Virus genome (UHGV): UHGV-1332848
Length of the DNA: 64,000 nt
Strand: one strand, 5' to 3'
From: a virus
The position numbers and the translations under genes are program-made. Every line of letters begins with the position of its first letter. Position 1 is the stretch's first letter. Shown piece after piece: positions 735-33,413 of the stretch. The notes below the pieces were generated by a model, which worked only from the letters and a program-made list of their open reading frames with translations, was not told where the DNA came from and did no database searches.

Positions 735-1049
735 ATGGATAGAAGTTTAATAATGTTAACTTATAACCATAGAGATGGTATAACGGAAATAAAGCCTATC
801 AAAGCAGAACTTACTAGCGAGAGAAAATGTAAATATGTAATTAGATTAAATGATAATAATACATATATTTATGAACATAATTTTAATATAAGGCAGAAGA
901 TTGGAAAACTCAAAGATAGTAGGTATCGTGAGTATTTCATAATATCAGAGAATGAAGAAACTGCTGTAAAATCTTATAGTGAAGAGATCAAGAAACTTGT
1001 TAAAGTTCATTTAAGTAGCGTAGATTATCTTTTAAAATTATTAAAGTGA
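735..1049 (+). CDS. hypothetical protein (104 aa)
   Basis: ORF preceded by GGGAGAATAG RBS-like sequence. Confidence 0.45.
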   Translation: MDRSLIMLTYNHRDGITEIKPIKAELTSERKCKYVIRLNDNNTYIYEHNFNIRQKIGKLKDSRYREYFIISENEETAVKSYSEEIKKLVKVHLSSVDYLLKLLK

Positions 1050-1215
1050 AAAACGAGAGGTGTAATAATATATTGAAAAATAAAATGATTTACTGGTTAG
1101 AGTGTCTAGGTTTAACTATTGAAATTATACTTATAACATTGCTTTATACAGTTGTAATTAAAATGGGAGGATAGAAATTTTTTAAAATTGTTGTTTCAAC
1201 AGCTAATTAAAGGAT

Positions 1216-1593
1216 GTGATAGATATGGATTATTTTGATGAAGGTAATAAGCTTTACGATATAAGAAATTATAAACAGGCTATTAAAAAATACAAAAAGA
1301 GCATTGAATTTAAGGTGCATGAGGAACGTAGCTATTATAATATGGGGTGTTGTTACATAAAGCTAAAAGACTACAATAAAGCCATTGAATGTTTAAGGAA
1401 AGCAATGTCATTTAGTAGAGAAAGTGAATATTATTTTAATTTAGGATATTGCTATGCGTATAAAGAAGACTATGGATCTTCATTATTTAATTTTATAATA
1501 GCTTCAAAATTAGATGAAAATGATTATGACGCAGTAAAAGCTATAAATGTGCTTACAGAAGAAATAAAAGAGTTAAATTGCAACAATAATTAA
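1216..1593 (+). CDS. TPR-repeat protein
   Basis: Repeated 'YxxxGxxYxxxxxYxxAIexxxKA' TPR-like units (e.g. YYNMGCCYIKLKDYNKAIECLRKA). Confidence 0.5.
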   Translation: MIDMDYFDEGNKLYDIRNYKQAIKKYKKSIEFKVHEERSYYNMGCCYIKLKDYNKAIECLRKAMSFSRESEYYFNLGYCYAYKEDYGSSLFNFIIASKLDENDYDAVKAINVLTEEIKELNCNNN

Positions 1594-1641
1594 AATGCGA
1601 ATTTTATTAACAATTAATTAAAATATAAAAAGAGGTGTTAA

Positions 1642-2355
1642 ATGCAATACGTTGGAAGTAAAAATAGGTTATCTAAAGAGTTGATACCTATAATACAATC
1701 ATACATAAATGAAAACACAAAAGGTTATTTAGAGCCTTTTGTTGGTGGAGCAAATATAATAGATAAAATTAAATGTAATAACAAAATAGGATTCGATATA
1801 CACAAAGAGTTAATAGCATTACTTAAATATGTTTCAGAAGGAAAAGATTTGCCCAATACAATCACAAAAGAAGAGTATGATTATGTTAAAAATAATAGAG
1901 ATAAGTTTGAAGATTGGTATATAGGTTTAGTTGGTTTTTGTGGTAGTTATGGTGCAAAATATTTCGGTGGTTATGCTAAGGGTAATGATAAAAGAGATAG
2001 ACAAAATGAAGCCATAAGAAATTTAGCAAATCAGTCATATAATTTAAGAAACATATCTTTTATACATAGGGATTTTAGTGATATAGATAAAGATGAGTTT
2101 AAAAATTACGTTATATACTGTGATATACCTTATAAAGATACAACAAAATACAGTACAAAAGAATTTCCATATGAAGAATTTTATGAATGGGTAAAAGAAA
2201 TGTCAATACATAATACAGTGTTAATAAGTGAATATGATATGCCTGATGAGTTTGAGTGCATATGGTCAAAAGAACATAAGGTTAATTTTGATAGCAATAG
2301 AAATAACGCAGAAAAAAGAGTAGAAAAACTATTTACATACAATAAACAAATATAA
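1642..2355 (+). CDS. DNA N6-adenine methyltransferase, Dam/D12 class (orphan, no cognate endonuclease seen)
   Basis: N-terminal motif X (YVGSKNRL) and motif I (EPFVGGANI, FxGxG). C-terminal motif IV DPPY-like (CDIPY). The alpha-class order matches Dam-type MTases. Confidence 0.75.
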   Translation: MQYVGSKNRLSKELIPIIQSYINENTKGYLEPFVGGANIIDKIKCNNKIGFDIHKELIALLKYVSEGKDLPNTITKEEYDYVKNNRDKFEDWYIGLVGFCGSYGAKYFGGYAKGNDKRDRQNEAIRNLANQSYNLRNISFIHRDFSDIDKDEFKNYVIYCDIPYKDTTKYSTKEFPYEEFYEWVKEMSIHNTVLISEYDMPDEFECIWSKEHKVNFDSNRNNAEKRVEKLFTYNKQI

Positions 2356-2440
2356 TTGGTACATAATATATACTAATATATAACAAATAACTTAATAAAA
2401 TTTCTATTTTAAAAATTGTTTAATAATTAATTAAAAACTC

Positions 2441-2469
2441 TTTACAGTTTTTAGAATAAGTGGTAACAT
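2441..2469 (+). promoter_or_regulatory. sigma-A-type promoter TTTACA-17-TGgTAACAT preceded by AATAATTAATTAAAAA motif
   Basis: seen directly; same architecture at 11746-11773 (TTGACT-16-TGgTAAAAT) and 20585-20612 (TTTACA-16-TGgTATTAT). Confidence 0.5.
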
Positions 2470-2494
2470 ATAAATATAGGGAGGAGGTGAACGA

Positions 2495-2791
2495 ATGACA
2501 CCTTATGAACTAATAGAAACAATAAGTCAAAACCACAGTCCTTCTGAAACAATAGAAATAGTAAATGAGTTAATAGGTGAAATTGATAATAATCCAAGCA
2601 AATACATAAATGGATTATCACAATCTATTGAAGACTATGGCGAAATACATAACTTATGTCCTTTATGTGGATCTAAATTAACTACAAATACATACGAAGA
2701 AGATAGAGGAGAGTATTTCGGTTTTAACTCATACGAAACAATGTTTCATGGTGAATGTTCTAATCCAGAGTGTTCATATACAGAAGAGTAG
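2495..2791 (+). CDS. small zinc-ribbon protein
   Basis: CPLCG...HGECSNPEC paired Cys motifs. Confidence 0.45.
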   Translation: MTPYELIETISQNHSPSETIEIVNELIGEIDNNPSKYINGLSQSIEDYGEIHNLCPLCGSKLTTNTYEEDRGEYFGFNSYETMFHGECSNPECSYTEE

Positions 2792-3375
2792 AAAGGGGGA
2801 ATTTGATGGCAAAGAATAGGATTCTAAGCACTTTACTCTCGGTTATGTTATTAACACCATTGATTAAGGTAAGGGCTATAGAGATTCCTGCTTCTAAACC
2901 AAGAAAGGGAATTGAATTTGACAGGAATTTGAATTTAAGAAATTATGAAGTCGAACAAGTGGAAGAATTAATTAAAGTTGAATTTAAAAAACGTAAGAAA
3001 ATCGAATTGGAAGAACAAAAGAAAAGGGAAATTGAGGAGCAAAAGTTGGAAAATAAAAAGCAGTATTGGAAGTTTGAAGTGAGTTACTATTGTGGATGCT
3101 ACTACTGTACTCAGAATGGTAATTTAATTACAGCAAGTGGCGAGTGTGCACAAGAAGGAGTGACGATAGCTTTGCCCAAAGATATACCTTTTGGCAGTAA
3201 AGTGCATATAGACGATGTTGGGGATTTTATAGTACAAGACCGAGGTGGGTACATCGAATACACGTATGATGAAGAAGGAAACTTAATAATGAGGGCAGAT
3301 GTGTATATTGAAAATCATGATAGAGCTTTGGAGTTAGGAAGACATATTGAAAGTGGATATATAATAATTAATTAA
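2770..3375 (+). CDS. secreted 3D-domain (MltA/YuiC-like) protein
   Basis: N-terminal signal-peptide-like hydrophobic segment. C-terminal Cys/Asp-rich block GECAQEGVTIALPKDIPFGSKVHIDDVGDFIVQDRGGYI typical of the 3D domain. Confidence 0.55.
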   Translation: MFIYRRVERGNLMAKNRILSTLLSVMLLTPLIKVRAIEIPASKPRKGIEFDRNLNLRNYEVEQVEELIKVEFKKRKKIELEEQKKREIEEQKLENKKQYWKFEVSYYCGCYYCTQNGNLITASGECAQEGVTIALPKDIPFGSKVHIDDVGDFIVQDRGGYIEYTYDEEGNLIMRADVYIENHDRALELGRHIESGYIIIN

Positions 3376-3380
3376 AATAA

Positions 3381-3743
3381 TTGAGGGGTGGTTTTATGAA
3401 ACAATTTGCTTGTAAATCTTGTGGAAGTGTAGATTTATTTACAAAAGATAAAGGCGGAAATACAATGTTATATTGTTCAGATTGTGGAGCATATCAACAA
3501 AACTTAGGAAAGAATGACAAATTATTATTTGAAGAGTATAAAAAGTCTTTAGAGCCAGTTAAAAAGATAGCTAATAACATACAAGCTATGGAAAGTATTT
3601 TAAATTACGATGGTAGCACAGTTGCTGAATTAAACAATCTAATAGTTGCGGAAAAGGCTAGGCTAGAATTTATAAATAATAGTTTTCAAAGAGGAATAAT
3701 AAAAGGTTTAGAAATGGCTTTGAAACTTATGGTGGATAAATAA
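3381..3743 (+). CDS. zinc-ribbon protein
   Basis: CKSCGS...CSDCG motifs. Real start may be the ATG at about 3396 (MKQF). Confidence 0.45.
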   Translation: MRGGFMKQFACKSCGSVDLFTKDKGGNTMLYCSDCGAYQQNLGKNDKLLFEEYKKSLEPVKKIANNIQAMESILNYDGSTVAELNNLIVAEKARLEFINNSFQRGIIKGLEMALKLMVDK

Positions 3744-3766
3744 ATGAAAGATGTTGAGGGAGAGAA

Positions 3767-3937
3767 ATGAATATATTTTTAATACTATGGTTTATCGGTT
3801 TCTTTATATTTACTATAAGCTTTGTGCTTTGGGTAGTGTTTTTAATTAAAAAAGATATTGATAAAATGCTTAAATGGAATATGGTATTATTGGTTGGATG
3901 TCTTTTAATGAACCTATTTGGCAAATACATAAAATAA
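3767..3937 (+). CDS. small two-TM membrane protein (56 aa), not in ORF table
   Basis: ATG after GAGGGAGAGAA RBS; two hydrophobic helices. Explains a gap otherwise covered only by an antisense ORF. Confidence 0.4.
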   Translation: MNIFLILWFIGFFIFTISFVLWVVFLIKKDIDKMLKWNMVLLVGCLLMNLFGKYIK

Positions 3938-3961
3938 GTCTTTTATAATGTTTTTTAAGAG

Positions 3962-4366
3962 GTGAGAATTGTGAGAAAGATTAAGTTTAGGTTTAGATTA
4001 GAAGATAAAATAACAAAAGAAATAATAATGGTTTATGCTGAATTATATAATCCAAAGTATTCAAGTGATTTAATGCAATATCCTATAAATTTAGAAGAGT
4101 TTAATGTGTTATCTATTGATGAATATACAGGACTTAGAGATAAAAATGCAAAAGAAATCTATGAAGGTGATGTTATAAGACATAAAAATCCAAAACCATT
4201 TAAAGATTCAATTTATAAAGTAGTATTTTTAAATGGAGGATTTGCAATAAAGAATAGTGATTATGTAGAAGATTTAAATGAATTTTTGAAAGGTAGTTCA
4301 AGTGCTGAGGTCGTAGGAAACATATATGAAAATTTAGATTTGTTGAAAGGTTGCAATAATGGATAA
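3962..4366 (+). CDS. YopX-family phage protein
   Basis: Motif TGLRDKNAKEIYEGDVI matches the conserved YopX 'D.NGkEIyEGDiv' block. Confidence 0.6.
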   Translation: MRIVRKIKFRFRLEDKITKEIIMVYAELYNPKYSSDLMQYPINLEEFNVLSIDEYTGLRDKNAKEIYEGDVIRHKNPKPFKDSIYKVVFLNGGFAIKNSDYVEDLNEFLKGSSSAEVVGNIYENLDLLKGCNNG

Positions 4367-4640
4367 ATGGAAAGAGGTTTATAAATATTACAAAGAAAAT
4401 AAAATAGAGTATTATGAAGATTACTTAGGCGCAAAATTAACAAAATTTCAAAAGATTAAATTGAAAATATACAACATTTTCATTAGGTACTTGCAAGAAC
4501 TTATTGAAAGACAAAGAGAGATAATAGATGAAATGTTAATAGAACCTTATGGTAGTCTTAGATATGTAACTTTAAAGTTACATATGAATGTGTTGGATTT
4601 AAAAATTATATTTATTAAAGAGTTATTTAAAATTAAATAA
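4359..4640 (+). CDS. hypothetical protein
   Basis: ORF overlapping upstream stop; coding periodicity. Confidence 0.4.
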   Translation: MDKWKEVYKYYKENKIEYYEDYLGAKLTKFQKIKLKIYNIFIRYLQELIERQREIIDEMLIEPYGSLRYVTLKLHMNVLDLKIIFIKELFKIK

Positions 4641-4656
4641 CAAGAGGTGTTTAGAT

Positions 4657-4923
4657 ATGAAATTTTGTCCATTTTGTAAAACAAGATTGAGAGAGTATAA
4701 TTATACAAGTCATTATGACCCTCCAGAATATGGTACAGTTTGTGATAACACTAAATGTGGAAAATATTATAGTGGATATTTTTATTATGATGGTATTAGT
4801 TTAAAATGTGGGAATTGGACATATTTTGAGAAGTGTGACGAAACAGACAGTGTAGATTCTAAGTTGTTAGAGTTTAGAAAAAGAATTAATTACCAATTAA
4901 AGAAAAGCAATAAAAAGAGGTGA
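4657..4923 (+). CDS. zinc-ribbon protein
   Basis: CPFCK...CDNTKCG. Confidence 0.45.
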   Translation: MKFCPFCKTRLREYNYTSHYDPPEYGTVCDNTKCGKYYSGYFYYDGISLKCGNWTYFEKCDETDSVDSKLLEFRKRINYQLKKSNKKR

Positions 4924-4927
4924 TTGT

Positions 4928-5110
4928 ATGGATAATTGCTGTAACTGTAATAAAGAATGTGAATCTGAATATGTTTGTTCAGAATGTAGAGAAATAATGT
5001 GTTATAATTGTTGGCAAATTATGGTGGTATATGCGAAAGTTGCTATGATAAATATTATAGTGATGATGAAGAAGATATTTAAAAGAGGTATTTTATTAAA
5101 AATAAATTAA
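4928..5110 (+). CDS. Cys-rich small protein
   Basis: CCNCNKECESEYVCSECREIMCYNC. Confidence 0.4.
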   Translation: MDNCCNCNKECESEYVCSECREIMCYNCWQIMVVYAKVAMINIIVMMKKIFKRGILLKIN

Positions 5111-5124
5111 AAGGAGAAAGTTAA

Positions 5125-5559
5125 ATGAAAATTGAAGAAGCTGTACAAATTATAAAATCATTTGATATACCAGAGATTAATGAAGCTATGAGATGGATAA
5201 CACCAATGATTTACGAAAGAGATAAGTACAAAGAGAATTTTATAAAAATGGTGAAAATCTACAAAAAGATGTTGCCAACAATACATAAAGACAAAGAGAT
5301 AGAATTAAACAAAACCTATTGGGTTACCGAATGGTCTTGGAGTCCAATGTGTGACGGAAGATTTGTATATGAAGAAACTATAAGAAGTCATAAAGTTATT
5401 AATGGAATAGATTGTTATTTTACAGATAGTAATTATAGAACTTATTTTAAAGAAGATATTTACGAATCAAGAGAAGAAGCCGAAGAGGTAGTTAGGTGGC
5501 AAAATAAATTTGCCTACGATTATGAAACTATAATATCTAGGCAAAATGATATAAGATAA
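5125..5559 (+). CDS. hypothetical protein
   Basis: RBS AAGGAGAAAG upstream. Confidence 0.5.
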   Translation: MKIEEAVQIIKSFDIPEINEAMRWITPMIYERDKYKENFIKMVKIYKKMLPTIHKDKEIELNKTYWVTEWSWSPMCDGRFVYEETIRSHKVINGIDCYFTDSNYRTYFKEDIYESREEAEEVVRWQNKFAYDYETIISRQNDIR

Positions 5560-5624
5560 AATAAAAACATAATTTTAATAATTAATTTGTAACTATTATA
5601 AATTAATTTTGAGGGGGAAATGAA

Positions 5625-6086
5625 ATGGGAAGAGAATTGAAAAGAGTTCCTTTAGATTTTAATTATCCATTAAATGAAGTCTGGGAAGGTTATGCTCCAA
5701 CTATAGAGAAGATTAAGTCTATAAAAGGTATATTTAAAAAAGCACCCTACTTAAAAGATTGTAAGTCATCTTGGGATATATGCTCCAAATGTGATGAAAT
5801 AATAAATTGTTGCAGTGAAAGTGCAGAACATTGTATATGGTATAACAAGGACAATAAAAGAGAATGGTATAAAGAAGTACCTGAAGGTGAAGGGTATCAG
5901 TTATGGGAAACTACATCCGAAGGCTCTCCTATTAGTCCAGTATTCAAAACTTTGAATGATTTATGTGAATGGTGTGAAGATAATGCAACTACATTTGCAG
6001 ATTATAAAGCCACAAAAGAAGAATGGAGAAGAATGTTGCAAAGTGGGCTTGTAAGCCATAAAGAAGTAAATATTGAATTTATTTAA
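5625..6086 (+). CDS. hypothetical Cys-containing protein
   Basis: RBS GAGGGGGAAA upstream. Confidence 0.5.
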   Translation: MGRELKRVPLDFNYPLNEVWEGYAPTIEKIKSIKGIFKKAPYLKDCKSSWDICSKCDEIINCCSESAEHCIWYNKDNKREWYKEVPEGEGYQLWETTSEGSPISPVFKTLNDLCEWCEDNATTFADYKATKEEWRRMLQSGLVSHKEVNIEFI

Positions 6087-6501
6087 TATGTCATCCAGAA
6101 ATAATAATAATATGGGAAAAGGGGAGATTGATATGGGAATTTATAAAATAGGGAAATGCGATTATTGTGATAATAAAGGTGAAATAGTCAGACCTACACC
6201 TTTTATGGCAGACATAGCAATGATGTGTGAATATTGTTGGGGTGAAACTAAAAGAGAGTATGCTAATTCACATGGAGAATATATAGATGATTTTCAAAGT
6301 GACAAAGAAGATTATAAAAAATTAGACGAAATACAAAAGAATATGGCTTACGAAGAAGAACTAAAAAGACTAGAATTAAAATTTAGAGAATGTGGATATA
6401 GCGATGATGCTATAGAATCAATAAAATATAATGATGGGGCAACAGAAGTAGAAGAATTTATTGCAAATTTAGAAGAAGAGTTAAGTTGTTGGAGTGAGTA
6501 G
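6073..6501 (+). CDS. hypothetical zinc-ribbon protein
   Basis: CDYCDNKGE...CEYCWG. Real start possibly at internal MGIYKIG. Confidence 0.45.
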   Translation: MNLFNMSSRNNNNMGKGEIDMGIYKIGKCDYCDNKGEIVRPTPFMADIAMMCEYCWGETKREYANSHGEYIDDFQSDKEDYKKLDEIQKNMAYEEELKRLELKFRECGYSDDAIESIKYNDGATEVEEFIANLEEELSCWSE

Positions 6502-6551
6502 TAAACAATTCAGAAATAAAAATAAATTAAATAAAAAAAGGATGTGTAAAA

Positions 6552-6779
6552 ATGTATATAAATAATACAACATATTGTGGAAATCAAGATTGTGATAATT
6601 GCAAAAACAATGATATTTGCAAGTGGGTTTCTTCAAGAAAAGAGATAAATAGTAAGGTCAATGAAATGAGAAAAGATAAAGATTTTTGTTCTCCAGTACA
6701 GATAAAAGTTACTTGTAATAGCTTTGAAAAGAAGGAAGAGAAACGAGATGGTTGGAAGCTAACAAATAAATTTAATTAA
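6552..6779 (+). CDS. Cys-rich small protein
   Basis: CGNQDCDNCKNNDIC. Confidence 0.4.
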   Translation: MYINNTTYCGNQDCDNCKNNDICKWVSSRKEINSKVNEMRKDKDFCSPVQIKVTCNSFEKKEEKRDGWKLTNKFN

Positions 6780-6791
6780 GGTAGGTGAAAT

Positions 6792-7118
6792 ATGGACAAA
6801 TTTAAATACACTATAAACGATATATTTAAATTTCCAATAGGAACTAAATTACAAGATGAAGAGGGTAATACATATAAAATATTTCAAGATAAACTTGGTT
6901 CGAAAACATTCAAGTATGCAATATTAAATGATAGATTAATGAATAGTAAATTTAAAGTGGTTGATTATAATGATGTTGAAGATAAGGATTTAATATGCCC
7001 TGATTGTGGTAGAGAGCTGGGAAGAAGATTTGTAAAAATAGATGACCACGGCGGATATGATTTCATTCTTGGAGTAGAATACGATTGTGAGTGTGGTTAT
7101 TACAGAGTAGATAAATAA
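6792..7118 (+). CDS. zinc-ribbon protein
   Basis: CPDCG...CECG. Confidence 0.45.
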   Translation: MDKFKYTINDIFKFPIGTKLQDEEGNTYKIFQDKLGSKTFKYAILNDRLMNSKFKVVDYNDVEDKDLICPDCGRELGRRFVKIDDHGGYDFILGVEYDCECGYYRVDK

Positions 7119-7145
7119 TAAATTAAAAAGTGAGAGGTGTAAAAT

Positions 7146-7370
7146 ATGGAAATGATTCAAAGAGATATAGAGCATGACAACCTTGAAGAAGCTAGAAATA
7201 ATTTAAATGATTTTACTGGTAAAATAAAGAGAAGATATGAAAGAGAAATACATATGGATAATGATAGATTAATAGATGAATGGCAATTAGGTTTTATAAA
7301 TGAGAATCCTGATTTGAGTTTTGATGAAATATTATTAGTAAAAAGAGTTTTTGATTATAGAAGGGATTAG
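7146..7370 (+). CDS. hypothetical protein
   Basis: RBS GAGAGGTG upstream. Confidence 0.4.
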   Translation: MEMIQRDIEHDNLEEARNNLNDFTGKIKRRYEREIHMDNDRLIDEWQLGFINENPDLSFDEILLVKRVFDYRRD

Positions 7371-7380
7371 ATAGAAAATA

Positions 7381-7605
7381 ATGATTGAATTGTGGTTTGT
7401 AATCTCAATGTTAACATGCATCATTTATTTCCTTATTCTGTTCAGATGTGAAAAGATTATAAAAAAACATTTGAGCATAAAATTTATTGAAACAATCAAA
7501 ACACTTTTAATATGTTTTATACCAATAGTACACATGTTCGTGATGCTGGGTTTAATGTTTGTATTGTTATTTGTGAGTGACGAAAAATTAAAGAGTTTAG
7601 TGTAG
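7381..7605 (+). CDS. small membrane protein
   Basis: two hydrophobic helices. Confidence 0.35.
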   Translation: MIELWFVISMLTCIIYFLILFRCEKIIKKHLSIKFIETIKTLLICFIPIVHMFVMLGLMFVLLFVSDEKLKSLV

Positions 7606-7697
7606 AGTAGATAAAACATTGATTTTATTAATAATTAATTAAAAATAAGCCAACGTTGCTGAAACAGGGGTGAGTATAGATTAAAGGGAGGAATTAC

Positions 7698-8851
7698 ATG
7701 AAAGTTATTAAAAGAGACGGAACAGATGTAGATTTTCAAAAGGAGAAAATAGAAAATGCAATATTTAAAGCTATGAAAAATGGTAGTGGTGTAGTAAAGG
7801 AGAAGATTGCACAAAAGATATCAGAAGAAATACAACAATCTGCAATAAGTGTTCTATCAGTATCACAGATAGAAAAAATGGTTTATGATCTGTTAATTAA
7901 ATATAAACAAAAAGATACAGCTAGAGCATATGAGAGGTTCAGGGCAGTACAAGAATTTAAAAGAAATAATAATACAACAGACGAAAGTATACTAAGTCTT
8001 TTAAATAAAACTAATGAAGATGTTGCTAAAGAAAATTCCAATAAAAACTCAGTTATTGCGTCTACTCAAAGAGATTTGATAGCAGGTGAAGTTTCAAAAG
8101 ATATAGCAAAAAGAAAACTTATTCCAACACATATAGTTCAAGCACATGAAGAAGGGGCAATCCACTACCACGACCTAGATTATGCAATACAAAATATTTT
8201 CAATTGTTGTTTAATAAACCTACAAGACATGCTTGATAACGGGACGGTGATTAATGATAAATTAGTCGAATCACCAAAATCCTTTAGTACAGCATGTACA
8301 ATAACAACTCAAATAATGGCTCAAGTTGCAAGTAATCAGTACGGTGGACAAAGTATAACTATTGCACATTTAGCTCCTTATTTAAGAAGAACAAGAGACA
8401 AAGCATTTAAACATTATTATAATGACTTAGGCTTTGATGTTGAAACTTCTAATAAATTATCTAAAGATATAATGATGAAAGAACTTAAAGATGGTGTTCA
8501 GACTATAAGATATCAGCTTTCAACATTACAAACTACTAACGGTCAAGCTCCATTTGCAACTATTTACCTTGAAATTGATGAAGGTAATGAGTATGAGGAA
8601 GAAATGGCTTTGATTTGTGAAGAAATGATAAAGCAAAGATTAGAGGGCATGAAAAATTATAAAGGACAAGAAATAGGAGAGGCTTTCCCAAAACTTGTTT
8701 ATTTATTAGATGAACACAATTGTCTTGAAGGTGGAAAATATGACTACATAACTAAATTATCAGCTAAGTGTACAGCAAAAAGACTTGTTCCAGACTATCA
8801 GTCGGCAAAAATTATGAGAATGAATTATGAAGGAAATACTTTCCCACCGAT
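7698..8851 (+). CDS. nrdD: anaerobic ribonucleoside-triphosphate reductase NrdD, exon 1
   Basis: N-terminal ATP-cone (VIKRDGTDVDFQKEKIENAI); RBS AAGGGAGG. The ORF frame runs into a stop at 8858, just after the inferred 5' splice site (U8851). Confidence 0.75.
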
Positions 8852-9737
8852 AAACTAAAACTGTCGCATATAGTAGTGATATTATATGAAAACCCATCTA
8901 AACGGAGAAAGTCCTATATAAAGGATAACTCACCGTACTAAATTGTTGAATATTTAAAAATTAATTAAATAGGAGGTGTTATATTGTGGAAAGATATTCA
9001 AAATTGGGAAGATTTATATGAAGTTAGCGATACTGGGGAGGTTAGAAATAAATTATCCAATAATTTATTAGTTGGTGATATTAATAACGCAGGTTACTAT
9101 CGTGTATGTTTATATAATAAGAACCACATACCGCCAAAACAAAGGTTCTTTAGACATAGACTGGTGGCAAAACATTTTATAGATAACCATAAAAATCTAC
9201 CTCAAGTAAACCATATAGATGGTGATAAATCAAATAATTCGATGAATAACTTAGAATGGGTTAGCCCAAAAGAGAATGAAATACATAGTAGAAAAGTTAT
9301 TGGCGTAAAAGAATATAAACCATTTGCTGTAGTTTTTGATAATGGTAAAACCATTGTTTGTAATTCAAAATCAGAATTAAGCAATGAAATTGGGTTAACA
9401 AAAACTTCTATAAAAGAATGGTTGCATAAAGGTAACACCGGTTATTTAAAAAGAGGGATTAAAGATATATACTACATATAAAGTAAAAGTATTCAACATA
9501 AAAGTCTAAAGACTAACGAAAACAATTAATAGAGAAACACTATTAAGGGAATGAGTAGTGTAGAGCCACAAGCTTATGGTGGTAAGGCACGGGAGATAAG
9601 ACCTTTTAAATCGAAACGATGGGGCTCTTATCAATGGTAACAGTTGTAAGAGTGTGATATAGTCTAATATCTTATGGTAACATAAGGAAGTTCATAAGAG
9701 AACTGTACAACAGTTGCGATGTTGTATGAATATTATG
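8852..9737 (+). mobile_element. group I self-splicing intron interrupting nrdD, carrying a homing-endonuclease ORF
   Basis: Splicing U8851 to G9738 gives ...FPP-M-GCRSHVG...GRFNQGVISLNLPQIA. This matches, from memory, the conserved NrdD block (E. coli ...SPMGCRSFLG...GRNNLGVVSLNLPRIA). Intron ends in G (9737) and exon 1 ends in U. A structured GC-richer RNA segment lies at 9481-9737. Confidence 0.65.
8984..9481 (+). CDS. HNH homing endonuclease (NUMOD4 + HNH_3), intron-encoded
   Basis: NUMOD4-like WEDLYEVSDTGEVRN. HNH core VNHIDGDKSNNSMNNLEWVSPKEN. Own RBS AGGAGGTG. Confidence 0.85.
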   Translation: MWKDIQNWEDLYEVSDTGEVRNKLSNNLLVGDINNAGYYRVCLYNKNHIPPKQRFFRHRLVAKHFIDNHKNLPQVNHIDGDKSNNSMNNLEWVSPKENEIHSRKVIGVKEYKPFAVVFDNGKTIVCNSKSELSNEIGLTKTSIKEWLHKGNTGYLKRGIKDIYYI

Positions 9738-10701
9738 GGGATGTAGATCACATGTAGGATGTGGTTGGAAAGATGAAAATAACAACTATAAGTTTTACGG
9801 AAGATTTAATCAGGGTGTAATATCGTTGAATTTACCACAAATAGCAATTCTATCTAATGGAGATATTGAAACATTTTGGGATATACTTGACCAAAGATTA
9901 CAACTGTGTAAAGAAGCATTATTGGTTAGACATAATCATTTAATTGGAACTCTTTCAGATGTTTCACCTATTCATTGGCAACATGGAGCAATAGCCAGAC
10001 TAGATAAAGGAGAGAAGATAGATAAATTACTGCAAAATGGTTATTCTACACTTTCATTAGGGTATGTTGGTGTATGCGAGATGACATACGCTATGTTAGG
10101 TGTAAGTCATACGACACTTGAGGGTGAGAGGTTTGCTTTGGAAGTAATGAATCATATGAATGAAGCATGTCAAAAATGGAAAGATGAAACTGGATTAGGC
10201 TTCAGTCTATATGGCACTCCAGCAGAAAATTTAATATATAGATTTTGCAAACTAGACAAGCAAAGGTTCGGTAATATACCAAATGTAACAGATAAGTTAT
10301 ACTATACTAATTCTTATCATGTTCATGTTTGTGAAGAAATAGATGCATTTAGTAAATTAAAATTTGAATCTCAATTCCATAACATAAGCCTAGGTGGATG
10401 TATTTCTTATATAGAAGTTCCTGATATGAGCAAAAACTTAGATGCAATTGAACAAATTATAAACTTTATATATCACAATATACAATATGCAGAAATAAAT
10501 ACTAAACCAGATATCTGTTATAAATGTGGATTTACTGGTGAAATAAAGAATGATGATAACTTAGAATGGTATTGTCCTAATTGTGGCAATAGAGATGAGT
10601 CAGAAATGCAAGTAATGAGAAGAACTTGTGGTTATATAGGGACTAATTATTGGAATAAAGGAAGAACTGCTGAAATAAAAGATAGAGTAATTCATTTATA
10701 A
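9738..10701 (+). CDS. nrdD: anaerobic ribonucleoside-triphosphate reductase NrdD, exon 2
   Basis: Glycyl-radical motif RRTCGYIG near C-terminus; CPNCG zinc ribbon. The table ORF 9826-10701 is the in-frame tail of this exon. Confidence 0.75.
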
Positions 10702-10705
10702 GAAG

Positions 10706-11212
10706 GTGTTTTGTATGAATTATGCAGAAATTAAAAAGTTTGATATAGCTAATGCTCCAAAAGTTTGTTGTACAATATTTTTTAGTGGGTGTACTCATAA
10801 TTGCAAGGGATGCTTTAACAAAGAAGTACAAAATTTTAATTATGGAAAAGAATTTTCTAACGAGGTTATGAATTACTTCATAAGCAAAGCTAGTCATAAA
10901 CAGATTAAAAATATATGTATATTAGGAGGAGAACCGTTCCAGCAAGAAATTGATATAATGATTAATTTCCTTGAAAGGCTTAAAATTGAAGTTAAAAAAC
11001 CAATCTGGGTTTGGACGGGATATCTATACGAAGAGTTACTAAAAGACAGAAATAAAAATAGACTATTAAAATACATAGACGTTTTAATTGATGGTAGATT
11101 TGAATTGGATAAAAAAGATTTAAATTTAAGGTTTAGAGGTTCAAGTAATCAAAGAATTATAGATGTACAAAAAAGCCTTAAGCAAAATAGAATAATAGAA
11201 TTTTTATATTAA
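10706..11212 (+). CDS. nrdG: anaerobic RNR activating protein NrdG (radical SAM)
   Basis: CTHNCKGC radical-SAM cluster. Strong similarity to E. coli NrdG (FVSGCVHECPGC, IWVWTGY, RGSSNQ). Start may be MNYAEI. Confidence 0.85.
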   Translation: MFCMNYAEIKKFDIANAPKVCCTIFFSGCTHNCKGCFNKEVQNFNYGKEFSNEVMNYFISKASHKQIKNICILGGEPFQQEIDIMINFLERLKIEVKKPIWVWTGYLYEELLKDRNKNRLLKYIDVLIDGRFELDKKDLNLRFRGSSNQRIIDVQKSLKQNRIIEFLY

Positions 11213-11228
11213 AGGAGATTAAAAAAAT

Positions 11229-11711
11229 ATGTTTAAAATAATATTGGTGTTATGGTTTTTGAGATTTTTTATAAATCTATTTACAAACAATTTTACATTT
11301 AAATATTTATATAAAAGGTATTTAAAAAGTTTAGAGAGATACAATGTGACAAAAAGTGGTGATATAGACTCGATAGAGGAAGATGGTAAGATTGAGATAA
11401 TGTTAGAAAGGTTCTGTATAATCGTTGTTGGTATTTATAAGATTTTAATGCTAATAATTGGTTTAATAATGATGTTGACTATGGTTAAATACGATCCAAC
11501 ACTTATAACAAAGATATTTATACTTTTAAATATTACATATATAATTGTATCAATGATAAAAGCTAAATTTGCTAAAAAGAAAGATGATAATCTTATTGAA
11601 TCAACCAGAAAAACTATTTACGATATAGAAAGATTTTCTTTTTATAAGCTTATATGTAGACTTATAAATGTTTTATATTGGGGTTATGCAATATATCTAT
11701 TATTCTTCTAA
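11229..11711 (+). CDS. hypothetical membrane protein
   Basis: several hydrophobic helices. Confidence 0.4.
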   Translation: MFKIILVLWFLRFFINLFTNNFTFKYLYKRYLKSLERYNVTKSGDIDSIEEDGKIEIMLERFCIIVVGIYKILMLIIGLIMMLTMVKYDPTLITKIFILLNITYIIVSMIKAKFAKKKDDNLIESTRKTIYDIERFSFYKLICRLINVLYWGYAIYLLFF

Positions 11712-11830
11712 TAGAATATTTATTTAATAATTAATTAAAAACTTATTGACTTCCTTACAGTATGTGGTAAAATATAAATTGTAAGGAAGTTATTTCTTTA
11801 TAATCAATTAAATGAAAAGGAGAGGATGAA

Positions 11831-12316
11831 ATGAAGATTAGAATTAAATACTTTAATAATGCAACAAAATTACAAAAGATTGAGAAAGGTAACTGGATAG
11901 ACCTATATGCAAATGAAGATGTTTTTGTACCACAAGGAGAAAAAGCAATGATTCCATTGGGAATAGCTTTAGAGTTACCTAAAGGCTGGGAGGCACATGT
12001 AGTCCCAAGATCAAGCACATTCAAAACATGGGGAATAATACAAACTAATCACATGGGCGTAATTGATGATACGTATATAGGAGATAATGATATGTGGTGG
12101 TTTCCAGCCTATTGTTTAAAAGGTAAGGAACATAAGGTAGAAACTGAACCTCACTCTACAACATATCCATTGGGAGTTAAAGGAACTTGGATTAGAAAAG
12201 GGGATAAAATTTGCCAATTTAGAATAATGGAAATTATGCCTGAAATAGAATTTGAAGAAGTAGAACATTTTGGCAATGTTGATCGTTCAGGATTTGGTTC
12301 TACGGGAGCTAGGTAA
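11831..12316 (+). CDS. dut: dUTP diphosphatase (trimeric dUTPase)
   Basis: Motifs [20 protein letters not shown] and C-terminal RSGFGSTG; resembles SPbeta-type phage dUTPases. Confidence 0.9.
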
Positions 12317-19074: not shown

Positions 19075-19115
19075 AATGTGGATTTCAATAATTAATTAAA
19101 GGAGTGGATTATAAA

Positions 19116-19706
19116 ATGACATGTGTGGTAGGAATGTTAGATAAAGAGAATAAAACAGTTTACTTGGGTGGAGATAGCTTAGGCTCAAATGGTTATATAA
19201 AGACAATTTATAAACAAAGAAAGGTTTTTCATTCAAAAGATACAAATGATTTAATTATAGGTATTTGTGGTTCTTTCAATTTTCAAGGGTTAGAATATGA
19301 AAAATTGCTAGATGAAACAAAATTATTGAAAGGCGAGATAGATAGAGAATATTTAATAACAAAGTTTATACCAAATTTAAGAAGAATAATATCGTCATAT
19401 AACTGTAACGAATCCAAAAGCGGGATAGATAGTATGGAAGGAGTTTTACTATTCGGATATAGAGATAATTTATTTATGATACAATCCGATTACTCGTTAG
19501 TGGAATCTACTGATGATTATTTGGCAATTGGTAGTGGGATGGATTACGCTTTAGGAAGTTTAGCAACAACTTATGATAATGAAATACCTATAATAGACAA
19601 AATACATATGGCTTTAAAGTCAGCTACAAAACATGTGGTAGGAGTTGAACCACCGTTCTACATAATAAATACAGCTAATGACGAAGTAATAGAATTGTTA
19701 GAATAA
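19116..19706 (+). CDS. HslV-like Ntn-hydrolase (proteasome-type peptidase homologue)
   Basis: Start at ATG 19116 (RBS AAAGGAGTGG) gives Met-Thr N-terminus (MTCVVGML), so Thr1 is exposed. Blocks VYLGGDSLGSNGYIKT...KQRKV and DYLAIGSGMDYALGSLA align with HslV VIAGDGQATLGNTVMKG...KVRRL and DLIAIGSGGPYAQAAARA. Confidence 0.6.
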   Translation: MTCVVGMLDKENKTVYLGGDSLGSNGYIKTIYKQRKVFHSKDTNDLIIGICGSFNFQGLEYEKLLDETKLLKGEIDREYLITKFIPNLRRIISSYNCNESKSGIDSMEGVLLFGYRDNLFMIQSDYSLVESTDDYLAIGSGMDYALGSLATTYDNEIPIIDKIHMALKSATKHVVGVEPPFYIINTANDEVIELLE

Positions 19707-20856: not shown

Positions 20857-21372
20857 ATGATTATGAATAAAAACAAAAAAATCTACATCGCAGGGAGTTT
20901 ATTTTCTGAAGCTGAGGTTGCACAAAGAATAAAGGAGGGAGAGTTGTTAAAAAAAGTTGGGTTTGAAAATATATATAATCCTATACAAGCCCCATGCAAT
21001 TCCAAGGAAGATTTGCCGACTGCTGAAGATATTTTCTGGGGAGACACAAAAGAAGTATTAGAATCAGAAATTGTAGTGATTGATATAAGTAACCCACTAG
21101 ATGCAGGAGTTTTTTGTGAAACTGGGATAGCTTGGGCTTGTAATTACATCCATAGGTTAGCTAATGAAGGTAAGAATTTAGATGAAGTTTTAAACATAAT
21201 GAAAGAAAAGATGGTAGTAGCACATCTATCTGATATAAGGAAATCGACATCACATAGATATAATGGCAACCATATTCCAGTAGGATTTAATCAATTTGCA
21301 GTAGCCTGTATTGAAGATGTTGGTGTTATAAAAGACAGTTTCAATGAAGTATTAGAAGAGTTAAATGATTAA
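20857..21372 (+). CDS. nucleoside 2-deoxyribosyltransferase-family protein (NDT / dNMP N-glycosidase-like)
   Basis: N-terminal IYIAGSLFSEAE block resembles the NDT/Rcl signature (IYLAGPFF). Size (~170 aa) fits the family. Confidence 0.55.
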   Translation: MIMNKNKKIYIAGSLFSEAEVAQRIKEGELLKKVGFENIYNPIQAPCNSKEDLPTAEDIFWGDTKEVLESEIVVIDISNPLDAGVFCETGIAWACNYIHRLANEGKNLDEVLNIMKEKMVVAHLSDIRKSTSHRYNGNHIPVGFNQFAVACIEDVGVIKDSFNEVLEELND

Positions 21373-21405
21373 TTTGTATCTATTGCGAAGAAAATGGAGG
21401 TAACT

Positions 21406-21684
21406 ATGGATTTAAAAATAAAAGATAAAGTTATATTCACTAATATGCAAAATGGAAATGAAGAAGTTGGAGAAATACAACTAATTGCACAAGTCACAGA
21501 TTGTGATACTACTGGAATAGTCGGTAAAAATGTTTATTATGTTAGAACTATAACGGGAGGACAACTATTTTTTAGGCAAAACTTAGAAAAATATACAGAA
21601 GGAGTTAAGGATCAATGTCCTTGTATGAAAGAGCCAAGCTATAATTGTGGCATGAAATGTTCAAGATGTGGAAGAGAATTGTAA
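21406..21684 (+). CDS. zinc-ribbon protein
   Basis: CPCM...CGMKCSRCG at C-terminus; RBS GGAGG. Confidence 0.45.
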   Translation: MDLKIKDKVIFTNMQNGNEEVGEIQLIAQVTDCDTTGIVGKNVYYVRTITGGQLFFRQNLEKYTEGVKDQCPCMKEPSYNCGMKCSRCGREL

Positions 21685-21729
21685 TTCGCAATTCAGAAAT
21701 AAGAATAAATTAGGGGAGGAAATGAAAAT

Positions 21730-22014
21730 ATGAATTTAGCAACATTATTTAGTACATTTCAATTAGTAGGAGGTGTAGTTCTGTTTATATCGTATTTACC
21801 GATGATTAAGTTGCTACACACTACAAAATCAGCTAAAAATCAAAGTATTAGTTTTTGGATCATATTAGATGTAGGAATGGTTTTATTTGAGTTAAATGCT
21901 CTATATTTAGCAATTACACTAGGACAACTATCATATGCAATAAGCCAATCATTAAATTTATTATGCGGTATTATTGTATTAATTCAATTATTAATTTATA
22001 GAAAGAATGATTAG
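21730..22014 (+). CDS. SemiSWEET / PQ-loop family 3-TM membrane protein
   Basis: 94 aa with three TM helices. TM1 has a PQ-loop-like motif (LFISYLPMIKLL) followed by TKSAKNQS loop, matching SemiSWEET 'lPQi.k..ktKs..g.S'. Confidence 0.55.
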   Translation: MNLATLFSTFQLVGGVVLFISYLPMIKLLHTTKSAKNQSISFWIILDVGMVLFELNALYLAITLGQLSYAISQSLNLLCGIIVLIQLLIYRKND

Positions 22015-22024
22015 GAGTAAGTGG

Positions 22025-22663
22025 ATGAAGAAATTAAAATTATTTATAGATATGGATGAGTGTATTTTCGACCTTTCAGATGCTATAAGATTAAGAGTAA
22101 ACAAAGACTTTAACAAAAATTATCCGAAGGGATTCAATAAATCTTATTGGTGGTCAGATTATGAAATACCAAAGAAATATTTTGAAAATTTACTAAATCA
22201 AAAAGGATTATTTTTAGATTTGCAACCATATGAATGTGCAATAGAAACATTAACTAAACTACATGAAGAAGGTTATGATATACATATTCTAACTTGCCCA
22301 CAGTACAATGAAACGTGTTTCATAGAAAAAGTATTGTCGGTTAAAAAATACTTACCATTCATAAATATAGAAACTAATTTTCATACAAGTGGCAATAAAG
22401 GTTTGTTTGCTAAAGAGAATAGAATATTAGTTGATGATAATCCAATTTACATAAACCAATTTAGAGACAATGGTGGCTATGCGATAGTATTCAATCAACC
22501 TTGGAATAAAGAATGTAATGATGCTAGGGCGTTTAATTGGAATGATGTTTATGAGTATATAAAATTATATGATGAAGTTTATAATTTTAATAATACAAAT
22601 GTAAAAGTTAATGTAGATATAAATAATTATAAAAAGTATATGGAAGGAGCTTATCATGAGTAG
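22025..22663 (+). CDS. 5'(3')-deoxyribonucleotidase (HAD superfamily, NT5C-like)
   Basis: HAD motif I LFIDMDECIFD (DxD); family size and downstream blocks match NT5C. Start taken at the second ATG (RBS AGGAG). Confidence 0.7.
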   Translation: MKKLKLFIDMDECIFDLSDAIRLRVNKDFNKNYPKGFNKSYWWSDYEIPKKYFENLLNQKGLFLDLQPYECAIETLTKLHEEGYDIHILTCPQYNETCFIEKVLSVKKYLPFINIETNFHTSGNKGLFAKENRILVDDNPIYINQFRDNGGYAIVFNQPWNKECNDARAFNWNDVYEYIKLYDEVYNFNNTNVKVNVDINNYKKYMEGAYHE

Positions 22664-23273
22664 TAAATTATATTTCAAGTATGGCTGTATGAACTCAAGT
22701 AAATCATTAAATCTTTTAGCAACAGCTCATAACTATGAATCACAGGGTAAAAAAGTATTGCTAATAAAACCAACTTTAGATACAAGGACAGACAAAGGAA
22801 TTATTGAAAGTAGAGTAGGTATTTCTAAAAAATGTATTGATGTAGATAAGGATACTAACTTAATAAATTTATTTAAAATGCATATAAAGTATAATGATTT
22901 AATACATTGTATTTTGATTGATGAAGCACAATTCTTAACGAAAGATCAGGTAAAACAATTAGCAAAAATAGTTGATACATACGATATTCCAGTTCTTTGT
23001 TATGGTCTTAAAAACAGTTATATCGAATCTGAATTGTTTGAAGGAAGTCAAGCACTTTTATACTACGCAGACAAGTTGGAAGAAATTAAAACAACTTGCT
23101 TTTGTGAGGGATGTAATTCAAAGGCTACAATGAATCTTAGGATATTAAATGGTGAAGCCGTATATAACGGAGAAATGATTAATTGCGGAGATACCAAACC
23201 AACAAGCGATTATTATATGCCAGTATGTAGAAAACATTATTACAATCAAATAGGTTATTATAATCTTAAATAA
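22656..23273 (+). CDS. tdk: thymidine kinase
   Basis: P-loop YFKYGCMNSSKS; IHCILIDEAQFLT; DIPVLCYGLKNSYIESELFEGSQALL; VCRKHY. Near-colinear with E. coli Tdk. Confidence 0.9.
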   Translation: MSSKLYFKYGCMNSSKSLNLLATAHNYESQGKKVLLIKPTLDTRTDKGIIESRVGISKKCIDVDKDTNLINLFKMHIKYNDLIHCILIDEAQFLTKDQVKQLAKIVDTYDIPVLCYGLKNSYIESELFEGSQALLYYADKLEEIKTTCFCEGCNSKATMNLRILNGEAVYNGEMINCGDTKPTSDYYMPVCRKHYYNQIGYYNLK

Positions 23274-23384: not shown

Positions 23385-23428
23385 AAAAAATAGGGGATAT
23401 ACACTCAAATTAATGAATATATATCCCC
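23385..23428 (-). terminator. rho-independent terminator (minus strand)
   Basis: 9-bp GC-containing stem GGGGATATA/TATATCCCC followed on the minus strand by a U-rich tract. Confidence 0.45.
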
Positions 23429-23472
23429 TAAATTAAAAATGATAATTTACATATACTAATAGATTTAATACA

Positions 23473-26768: not shown

Positions 26769-27239
26769 TTAAACTTGATATTTAACTTCAGCTAAAACTT
26801 CTTCTATTTTCACCTCGATATATGAATTTATATCTTTTATTCCACCATTTAAAATATCTAACGTCCCATCTGTTAGTTGATTTAATACATTTTCTTTTAC
26901 TTGAACAGCAAGGTGTTTTAATTCTTCCTTGTCAATCTCTCCATCAAGCATAGCCTTTTCAATTAATTCTTTCTTAAGTGTGTTTTCCATAGCGATTATA
27001 TTTGTTTGAATTAATTTTTCAGTTTTCTCTATAGCGTTATTAAACATAGCCTGAACTCTTTCGTCTTCTAGTCTAGCAACCTCGATTTTAGCCTTTTGTG
27101 TAGCCTTAGCAACCCATAAACCAATATAAGCAGTAGCAATAGCGATAAGACCTCCTAAGACAACTGATAGTAATTGTAAAGCACTTTCTTGTAACATTTC
27201 CATTGTAAAATCCCTCCATTTAATTATTTTTATTGACAC
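26769..27239 (-). CDS. holin-like membrane protein (single N-terminal TM + coiled coil; LL-H-type)
   Basis: TM LLSVVLGGLIAIATAYIGLWVA then charged coiled coil; resembles Holin_LLH architecture. Confidence 0.4.
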   Translation of the reverse strand: MSIKIIKWRDFTMEMLQESALQLLSVVLGGLIAIATAYIGLWVAKATQKAKIEVARLEDERVQAMFNNAIEKTEKLIQTNIIAMENTLKKELIEKAMLDGEIDKEELKHLAVQVKENVLNQLTDGTLDILNGGIKDINSYIEVKIEEVLAEVKYQV

Positions 27240-32546: not shown

Positions 32547-33413
32547 TTACCTATTTATAGTTGCATTTTTTCTTATATATGCTCTAGTTCCATCTATATC
32601 TAAAGCATAATATCCGCTCATTTCAAATCTTGCAGTTATTAATTCATCTTTATAGAAAGGTTTAATTTCTTTTTCCCAAACCCTACAAGGATAGTCTATT
32701 ACTTGAAGTCTAAACCTTCTATATCTTTCATCAGTTCGTCCTAATAACTCTACATTAGCCTTTTCTACCCAACAGCGTTTCCCATCAAACTCTATAGCAT
32801 ATGCCCATTGATTTTCTGCATCAGAAGTTAATAAATCGCCCTTATTGAATATCTTAACTTCTCCATCATATGACATTGCATCTGAACTCATTTTCAAAGG
32901 TAGCGGGAAACTAGATTTAACATCTGTATCAAGTTTATTTAACTCAGCTTGAATCATATTTAAGAATCTTTGCCACCCCATATCCAAAGTTCTGTGAGGA
33001 CAGTACTTTCCACTAAAATCTTGATGTTTCTTTACTTTATCTATTCCCCAACCTCTTTCCTTTAGTATTTCAGCAACCAATTCAGCACAATTCCTTTCAG
33101 CTTTATCAAACCTTTCTCCGCCTGATCTTGAATAACAAATTTCTATACCTATGTATTTTCTATTACCTCTTCCACTTCCACCATCGCCAGTATGCCAAGC
33201 ATTTCTATTAAGTGGCAACCCTTGAATAGCACACACATCATCTACTGCAATATGAAAGCTTACTTCGTTATTATTGCTTTGCATATAAGCTATTTCATTT
33301 TCAGCACTTGCATCATTGGCTGTGTTATGAATTGCTATACCTTCAGCTTCCATTGGATAAGGGCACTTTATGTCGTACCTATTTGATGATATAAGTTTTT
33401 GTATTATTTTCAT
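32547..33413 (-). CDS. N-acetylmuramoyl-L-alanine amidase (Amidase_2/PGRP) with C-terminal cell-wall-binding repeats; endolysin
   Basis: AIHNTANDASAENEIAYM...AWHTGDGGSGRGNRKYIGIEIC...KHQDFSGKYCPHR zinc-amidase motifs; duplicated SH3-like C-terminal halves. Confidence 0.85.
   Translation of the reverse strand: MKIIQKLISSNRYDIKCPYPMEAEGIAIHNTANDASAENEIAYMQSNNNEVSFHIAVDDVCAIQGLPLNRNAWHTGDGGSGRGNRKYIGIEICYSRSGGERFDKAERNCAELVAEILKERGWGIDKVKKHQDFSGKYCPHRTLDMGWQRFLNMIQAELNKLDTDVKSSFPLPLKMSSDAMSYDGEVKIFNKGDLLTSDAENQWAYAIEFDGKRCWVEKANVELLGRTDERYRRFRLQVIDYPCRVWEKEIKPFYKDELITARFEMSGYYALDIDGTRAYIRKNATINR

Follow-up and report, generated by a model that had tools for sequence, protein, structure and literature searches.

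To our knowledge, sugars are the only substrates shown so far for the SemiSWEETs. PnuC, which has a SWEET-type fold, works with the NadR kinase by facilitated diffusion with kinase trapping. For PnuN, a member of the PnuC family, deoxynucleosides are the predicted substrates (PMC7749635). Neither viruses nor nucleosides feature in surveys of SemiSWEETs, one of which, from 2018, described the physiological role of the prokaryotic proteins as unknown. Here we consider a gene for a small membrane protein at positions 21730–22014 (+ strand) of UHGV virus genome UHGV-1332848, a 64,000-nucleotide stretch of DNA that we refer to as the window. Its similarity to the SemiSWEET/PQ-loop superfamily, an altered substrate pocket, and a recurring association with genes of deoxynucleoside salvage lead us to place at about 0.5 the probability that the encoded protein is a transporter of deoxynucleosides or nucleobases rather than sugars, a reading drawn from sequence and genomic context.

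The open reading frame (ORF) begins with ATG, encodes a three-helix membrane protein of 94 amino acids, and is preceded by a Shine-Dalgarno sequence, GGGGAGG, read from the sequence at 21713–21719 (+ strand), 10 nt 5′ of the start codon. The first transmembrane (TM) helix carries a PQ-loop-like motif at residues 18–29 (LFISYLPMIKLL), in which PM replaces PQ at residues 24–25, and residues 32–39 form a TKSAKNQS loop. A preliminary description of this DNA had reported the motif and the loop in a 94-residue ORF with three predicted helices; the ORF bounds proved exact, both sequence elements were located, and three helices (residues 3–32, 40–64, and 67–93) are present in an AlphaFold2 model run with 22 homologues, which has a predicted local distance difference test score of 92.7. 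Lys and Arg residues are confined to the TM1–TM2 loop and the C-terminal tail, a charge pattern that fits an N-out/C-in topology. Homologues in public assemblies number 22, at 68–100% identity, and an identical copy of the protein is encoded on a 133-kb contig of a Bacillota metagenome-assembled genome (MAG). Relative to the orthologues in loci L002 and L003, dN/dS is 0.10 and 0.12, respectively, with dS saturated at ~1.5. Given these low ratios and the existence of homologues, we therefore regard this as a real coding gene under purifying selection.

Profile and structure searches placed the protein with the SemiSWEETs. When the profile of the close family was compared with the PDB (~178,000 sequences), only two matches were obtained, both of them SemiSWEETs and both in register (E = 0.017 and 0.11). 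A HMMER scan of 1.84 billion representatives recovered 148 relatives, most of them 85–110 aa long and carrying the canonical motif Y-I-P-Q-I...K-T-K-S, and a broad profile built from 110 relatives matched SemiSWEETs in the PDB over their full length (4RNG at 6.8e-16, 9KAX at 2e-14, 4X5M at 2.4e-12, and 4QNC at 2.6e-10), followed by cystinosin and AtSWEET13. The Pfam PQ-loop family (PF04193) was matched by 10 of the 22 close homologues (best 5e-6) and by all 10 of the long remote homologues tested (22–37 bits). The target protein itself has no match to PF04193 even at E ≤ 10 (gathering cut-off 22 bits), nor to MtN3_slv (PF03083) or SemiSWEET_2 (NF037968), and its own best-matching families are two PHROGs of unknown function, phrog_25992 (8e-13) and phrog_2642 (1e-5). 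In a Foldseek search with the AlphaFold2 model, the top 14 PDB matches were all SemiSWEET chains, with root-mean-square deviations of 1.8–3.5 Å and TM-scores of 0.66–0.76 (query-normalised) or 0.72–0.84 (target-normalised); SWEET and the mitochondrial pyruvate carrier ranked below them, and a structural search of a viral library returned best matches labelled SemiSWEET/PQ loop. Taken together, the profile matches and the Foldseek results therefore support well both homology to the SemiSWEET/PQ-loop proteins and the triple-helix-bundle fold, and we consider it nearly certain that the protein is a divergent, single triple-helix-bundle member of the MtN3-like (SemiSWEET/PQ-loop) superfamily. The topology and fold proposed in the preliminary description are thus upheld; at the level of profiles the agreement is partial, in that family profiles reach the SemiSWEETs in the PDB but the target alone stays under the Pfam PQ-loop, MtN3_slv, and SemiSWEET_2 cut-offs. 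A resemblance to PnuC had also been raised; neither Pfam, NCBIfam, nor the PDB matches included a PnuC-family member for this three-TM protein.

We then compared the substrate pocket with that of sugar SemiSWEETs, using an alignment (hmmalign) of four solved SemiSWEETs with the family, LbSemiSWEET numbering, and residue roles for the hinge, the gates, and the pocket (Thr13/Trp48/Asn64) taken from a published account (PMC5972207). The hinge Pro is retained (P19 corresponds to P24 of the target) and the inner gate is altered conservatively, from F17/D32/S34/M37 to Y22/N37/S39/F42, but the hinge Gln is replaced (Q20 to M25), as are the pocket residues (T13/W48/N64 to L18/F53/Q73) and the outer gate (Y51/G52 to N56/A57). 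An additional invariant Asn, N76, lies one turn past Q73. All four solved SemiSWEETs have T, W, and N at the pocket positions, and Trp is absent from the W48 column in all 110 family members and all 53 locus copies examined. Relatives score 27–38 bits against the NCBIfam SemiSWEET_2 model, which has an 80-bit cut-off. At the second position of the PQ motif the close clade has M in 15 sequences, L in four, T in two, and Q in one; the wider family has P in 102 of 106 members and Q in 99 of 106. Many polar and aromatic residues within the helices are invariant in the close clade (W43, F53, N56, Y59, Q66, Y69, Q73, N76, and Q86), and their conservation suggests a binding site for a non-sugar ligand. 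The preliminary description had singled out the conserved PQ and the Asn/Tyr pore residues as features whose absence would speak against a SemiSWEET-like assignment: the hinge Pro is present, and the remaining positions (Q20, T13, W48, Y51, G52, and N64) are substituted as described above. Judged by its defining residues in this alignment, the protein is not a sugar SemiSWEET.

Genomic context points in the same direction. In the window the gene lies between NDT (nucleoside 2-deoxyribosyltransferase; 20857–21372), which is the first gene of a salvage cassette (PF05014 at 38 bits, cut-off 28.8; phrog_1817 at 7e-34), and NT5C, a HAD-type 5′(3′)-deoxyribonucleotidase (22007–22663; PF06941 at 66 bits; phrog_2643), which is followed by thymidine kinase (TK; 22656–23273; PF00265 at 126 bits; phrog_592 at 7e-68), the last gene of the block. 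All are on the + strand, and these Pfam and PHROGs assignments bear out the earlier placement of the gene in a nucleoside-metabolism operon. Association with such genes recurs in at least nine phage lineages, in which the SemiSWEET/PQ-loop gene (hereafter PQ in gene orders, with x for an intervening gene) lies zero to three genes from NDT, TK, a deoxynucleoside kinase (dNK), or NT5C. The order NDT-PQ-NT5C-TK is retained in L002 and L003; NDT and PQ overlap in Geobacillus phage GR1, where the NDT stop lies over the PQ start, and in L018, L019, and L061. Elsewhere the arrangement differs: PQ-x-NDT in Sporosarcina phage Lietuvens; NDT-x-x-PQ in Clostridium phage phi8074-B1 and ~30 CS phages; NDT 2.1 kb upstream of PQ, with an HNH insertion between them, in Staphylococcus phage RQ1; PQ-NDT-TK in L026, L041, L070, and L077; and PQ-NDT in L078. 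In L035, L042, L058, and L051 the order is TK-x-dNK-PQ, with the dNK stop (PF01712, 129–141 bits) overlapping the PQ start, and in L046, L050, and L063 dNK lies 0.6–0.7 kb from the PQ gene. One protein of 287 aa, P0054, whose contig is present in two samples, joins an N-terminal PQ-loop domain (35 bits) to a C-terminal NDT domain (56 bits), both above the Pfam cut-offs, and an N-out/C-in topology puts the fused NDT domain in the cytoplasm.

To place this association on a quantitative footing, we sampled IMG/VR with a degenerate DNA pattern for YxPQ[IV]..KTK, which is blind to PM-type copies such as the target and may favour Firmicutes-type sequences, and screened the resulting 57 loci with hidden Markov models. 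A family member was found in 40 loci, and the other 17 served as control viral loci. NDT, TK, or dNK occurred within 2.5 kb in 13 of the 40 family loci and in none of the 17 controls (Fisher p = 0.008 on the counts obtained before the dNK profile was added, 12/40 versus 0/17). Within the same loci, salvage genes were ~12 times denser near the PQ gene, with 39 in the 251 kb lying within 2.5 kb of it and four in the 311 kb farther out. In no case was a gene of sugar metabolism found next to a phage copy. The neighbours of chromosomal relatives from Clostridium, Paenibacillus, Gorillibacterium, and one MAG are uninformative, so the link to salvage cannot be extended to the cellular copies. Megablast of the window operon against deposited phages returned no match, tblastn against phages returned a single weak match for the target and none for P0062, and an alignment search with the close family found no relatives in IMG/VR and, in the genome collection, the MAG contig as sole match.

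The most informative comparison is with phages of the botulinum type. The closest homologues of the window NDT are those of the botulinum-toxin phages c-st and D-1873, in which a uracil/xanthine permease (Xan_ur_permease, PF00860, 138 bits) is encoded directly upstream of NDT-(x)-TK. The IMG/VR locus L026 is ~90% identical to D-1873 across NDT-TK, and the ~350 bp immediately upstream of its NDT hold an 88-aa PQ-loop gene and no other, compared with ~2 kb containing the permease in D-1873; thus, two unrelated membrane proteins alternate at one site of an orthologous cassette, and their occupation of the same slot makes the permease a probable functional analogue of the PQ-loop protein. CST094 of phage c-st was considered as an equivalent of NT5C and was set aside, having no Pfam match. 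The neurotoxin gene of the botulinum-toxin phages is followed, a few kb downstream, by the transporter-NDT-TK cassette (L016, positions 1–5947, which is c-st, and L017), and in L026 (positions 2–4493 of a 121-kb IMG/VR contig) a fragment of a BoNT-like ORF lies upstream of the PQ-NDT-TK cassette.

From these observations we infer a mechanism in which dimerisation, transport, substrate, and direction are all provisional. By analogy with the solved SemiSWEETs, the protein would sit in the host membrane as a parallel homodimer, with N-out/C-in topology, and operate as an alternating-access uniporter. Its pocket has been remodelled: Phe stands in place of the Trp that stacks on the sugar, Leu and Gln stand in place of the Thr and Asn ligands, and two further invariant Asn residues are present. 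Its substrates, most likely deoxynucleosides and/or pyrimidine bases (thymidine, deoxyuridine, uracil, thymine), would move down their gradient. In the cytoplasm, NT5C would release deoxynucleosides from host-derived deoxynucleoside monophosphates (dNMPs), NDT would exchange bases, and phosphorylation by TK (by dNK in other phages) would keep the product trapped in the form of dNMP; the outcome would be a supply of precursors rich in dTMP and dAMP for a genome of 29% GC. A stronger version of this proposal, which we hold tentatively and consider somewhat less probable than not, is that the proteins of PHROGs 25992 and 2642 may be dedicated deoxynucleoside/pyrimidine-base uniporters that, together with NDT, NT5C, TK, or dNK, would constitute a self-contained module for import, base swapping, and trapping. 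On that view the SWEET/PQ-loop superfamily would gain a new class of substrate, no smaller transporter of nucleosides or nucleobases would be known, and a prokaryote-type SemiSWEET would have a physiological role assigned to it for the first time.

Several observations weigh against assigning the protein to deoxynucleoside or nucleobase transport. Taken alone, it matches no Pfam or NCBIfam family at curated cut-offs; every Foldseek E-value exceeds 0.006, and a three-helix bundle is a simple fold. The hinge Pro is replaced in 3 of the 22 close homologues, which argues against a strictly conserved SemiSWEET mechanism; mutation of this residue cripples EcSemiSWEET (PMC5972207). In roughly two thirds of the viral PQ loci no salvage gene can be recognised in the vicinity, so more than one function may be represented in the family. 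The fusion protein P0054 is a singleton cluster, the remaining 119 matches listed being stand-alone NDTs, and it therefore counts as supporting rather than decisive evidence. Enzymes of the NDT family may also have other activities, for example as dNMP N-glycosidases, and genomic context cannot separate a nucleoside from a nucleobase substrate, nor import from export. Finally, one family member, P0357 (93 aa), is encoded directly after an Amidase_2 endolysin in the tail/lysis region of a Bacillus thuringiensis prophage (L010, positions 3991–5282; NVMF01000010.1), where a holin would be expected, so lysis may have recruited some members of the family.

This last case bears on one of the alternative scenarios, namely that the target is a holin, an antiholin, or some other membrane-perturbing or superinfection-exclusion protein. 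Its small size, three TM helices, N-out/C-in topology like that of class I holins, and basic C-terminus would all suit such a role. Neither the target nor its close homologues (22 members; Pfam, E ≤ 10) matched a holin family, however, and none was found in PHROGs; the comparison with holin families proposed in the preliminary description accordingly disfavours this explanation. That description had further noted that the gene does not stand with the lysis genes, which is correct: it belongs to the early + block, and the amidase (32547–33413) and a holin-like gene (26769–27239; phrog_36209) are on the − strand 5–10 kb away. The full-length homology is specifically to transporters, the invariant intramembrane polar and aromatic residues suggest a ligand pocket over a lesion-forming helix, and linkage to cytosolic salvage enzymes recurs, all of which make a role in lysis or exclusion very improbable. 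We regard it as just as improbable that the gene encodes a conventional sugar-carrying SemiSWEET uniporter and serves as an auxiliary metabolic gene for the import of sugars of the glucose or sucrose type, its place in the operon being incidental. Homology and fold do match the sugar SemiSWEETs, and cellular relatives are labelled "SemiSWEET family sugar transporter", but T13, W48, N64, and Y51/G52, invariant in the four solved structures, have become L, F, Q, N, and A; the complete absence of Trp from the W48 column, the low SemiSWEET_2 scores of the relatives, and phage neighbourhoods with strong salvage linkage and no sugar-metabolism genes argue against sugar as the substrate.

One may also postulate that the protein does not transport at all and instead serves as a membrane anchor or scaffold for NDT and the other salvage enzymes, for example near a host transporter or the replication site. 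The PQ-loop::NDT fusion P0054 would be expected under this scenario, as would the gene overlaps, typical of interacting partners, that several lineages show with NDT or dNK, and the loss of the hinge Pro in some close homologues. Transporter–enzyme fusions are also expected for substrate channelling, however; a genuine transporter, the uracil permease, occupies the orthologous site in botulinum-type phages, and conservation peaks at intrahelical polar and aromatic positions facing the pocket rather than in the cytoplasmic loops, so that a purely structural role appears improbable. Somewhat less so, but still unlikely for the target, is transport of another metabolite, such as nicotinamide riboside or nicotinamide (as in PnuC), a precursor of a modified base, or a cationic amino acid (as in eukaryotic PQ-loop proteins). 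Pfam PQ-loop outscores MtN3_slv, many viral copies have no salvage neighbour, and the PQ-loop gene of Bacillus phage vB_BcoS-136, which lacks a nearby NDT, lies ~4 kb from genes for ribose-phosphate pyrophosphokinase (Prs) and nicotinamide phosphoribosyltransferase (an enzyme of NAD salvage), which hints at a different substrate for that protein. Against this stand the deoxynucleoside-specific enzymes NDT, TK, dNK, and NT5C, which are the closest neighbours in the clade of the window and in at least eight other lineages, and the fact that the swapped-in transporter belongs to a nucleobase (NCS2) family; a substrate of this other kind may nevertheless apply to some family members. We therefore retain transport of deoxynucleosides or nucleobases as the preferred reading for the target.

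The wider setting of the gene is that of a Clostridium-type phage with 29% GC. The − strand of the window encodes a tape measure protein, portal, terminase, amidase endolysin, the holin-like gene, and an integrase, and the long early block on the + strand encodes NrdD/NrdG, dUTPase, and the salvage cassette. The genes of the cassette are tightly packed and must surely be co-transcribed, but the overlap between the target and NT5C is not certain. The longest NT5C ORF begins at an ATG at 22007, overlapping the stop codon of the target, and an in-frame ATG at 22025 has its own Shine-Dalgarno sequence (AGGAG, 22013–22017); because of this sequence and a 10-nt spacing that matches the one in L002 and L003, position 22025 is the likelier start. 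Of the translational coupling to NT5C claimed in the preliminary description, the tight packing thus stands and the overlap is left uncertain. Just past TK, between the converging + and − gene blocks, a hairpin with a 17-bp stem (23391–23430) is a probable operon-ending terminator. A promoter scan was uninformative in this AT-rich DNA, with 51 sites against 48 expected.

What occupies the spacer between NDT and the membrane gene varies. In the window it holds a 96-aa ORF on the + strand (21394–21684) that matches no family and whose C-terminus is rich in Cys (CPC...C...CSRC); in L002 and L003 it holds nothing, and in the MAG contig L020 (positions 4975–5812) it contains two unrelated ORFs of 108 and 151 aa. 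Farther upstream in the same block are a gene for an HslV-like peptidase (19104–19706; phrog_1040, with a weak match to Pfam Proteasome), dUTPase (11831–12316), and NrdG (10706–11212). The anaerobic ribonucleotide reductase gene, nrdD, is split into an N-terminal part (7698–8858) and a C-terminal part (9826–10701; NRDD profile positions 284–562 and the glycyl-radical domain), with an HNH/NUMOD4 homing-endonuclease ORF between them (8984–9481), an arrangement that suggests an interruption of the intron or intein type.

Among phages the fold takes three forms, namely single three-TM units, tandem overlapping gene pairs (93 and 97 aa, possibly forming a heterodimer), and fused proteins of ~200 aa; loci that illustrate these forms are L044 (6338–6909), L049 (580–1151), L015 (4968–5561), L014 (4995–5594), L021, and L022. 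The fused forms correspond to phrog_2642, and their seven hydrophobic segments (3+1+3) are clearest in Staphylococcus phage RQ1. This series mirrors the duplication route that leads from SemiSWEET to SWEET, and the tandem pairs and fused 3+1+3 relatives are consistent with a functional unit of two bundles. Some members have soluble C-terminal extensions of 80–130 aa with no Pfam match (L078, positions 4396–5082; P0031, P0062, P0099, P0157, and P0158); one type of extension, ...DGS.V.TPC.VN..TKE..., is found in four representatives, and in L078 the extended protein is encoded directly 5′ of NDT. Several remote PQ-loop homologues (P0082, P0095, and P0112) bear C-terminal extensions resembling zinc ribbons. 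In vB_BcoS-136 (L011, positions 5989–11977) the neighbours of the PQ-loop gene encode RNA ligase, polynucleotide kinase, ClpP, and DNA ligase.

According to the preliminary description, no SemiSWEET was known to have been reported in a phage, which does not hold at the level of annotation. A "PQ loop repeat protein" is listed in GenBank for phages Lietuvens, vB_BcoS-136, and GR1, and entries named "SemiSWEET, PQLC" exist in UniProt for metagenomic Myoviridae and Caudovirales as well as for giant viruses. As far as annotation goes, then, the presence of such a homologue in a phage is not new. The genomic linkage to deoxynucleoside salvage appears to be unreported, a literature search that covered few subscription journals having found no paper on phage members or on a link between the family and nucleoside metabolism. 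For the clade of the target this linkage offers a clear substrate prediction, drawing on independent kinds of genomic evidence, namely gene neighbourhoods in at least nine lineages with differing gene orders, a domain fusion, and displacement by a nucleobase permease. If the prediction is true, nucleosides or bases would be added to the substrates of the SWEET fold. It would also show how AT-rich phages of Firmicutes, including the botulinum-toxin phages, raise their dTTP and dATP pools, and a transporter of 90 residues would be potentially useful for engineering the uptake of nucleoside analogues. If it fails, the gene amounts to a routine case of a divergent PQ-loop homologue carried by a phage.

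Set beside the described systems, the protein is closest to the bacterial SemiSWEETs (PF03083; 4RNG, 4QNC, 4QND, 4X5M, and 9KAX), with which it has in common a length of ~90 aa, three TM helices in a 1-3-2 bundle, an N-out/C-in topology, a basic "KTKS" loop past TM1, the hinge Pro of TM1, and a conservative inner gate. It differs from them in the sugar pocket and the outer gate, in the Met that replaces the Gln of the PQ motif, in four additional residues in the TM2–TM3 loop, and in being carried by a phage, where its linkage is to deoxynucleoside salvage and not to carbohydrate genes. The annotated "PQ loop repeat proteins" of phages (Lietuvens ORF79, vB_BcoS-136 gp188, and that of GR1) belong to the same family (PHROGs 25992 and 2642) and have the same size, but they are only 26–35% identical to the target and keep the canonical PQ; those of GR1 and Lietuvens are encoded near NDT. 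The PnuC family resembles the target in its proposed role, since it combines a nucleoside-like substrate and facilitated diffusion with trapping by a kinase, but PnuC is a single chain of 7–8 TM helices with no sequence match, so that the resemblance is confined to function and fold; the partner enzymes also differ, being NadR or genes of the NrdR regulon for the PnuC family and NDT, TK, dNK, and NT5C for the family of the target. The NCS2 permease (PF00860) of c-st and D-1873 occupies the same slot directly upstream of NDT-TK as the PQ gene of L026, but it has an unrelated fold of ~390 aa and 12–14 TM helices and belongs to a family of proton-coupled nucleobase symporters.

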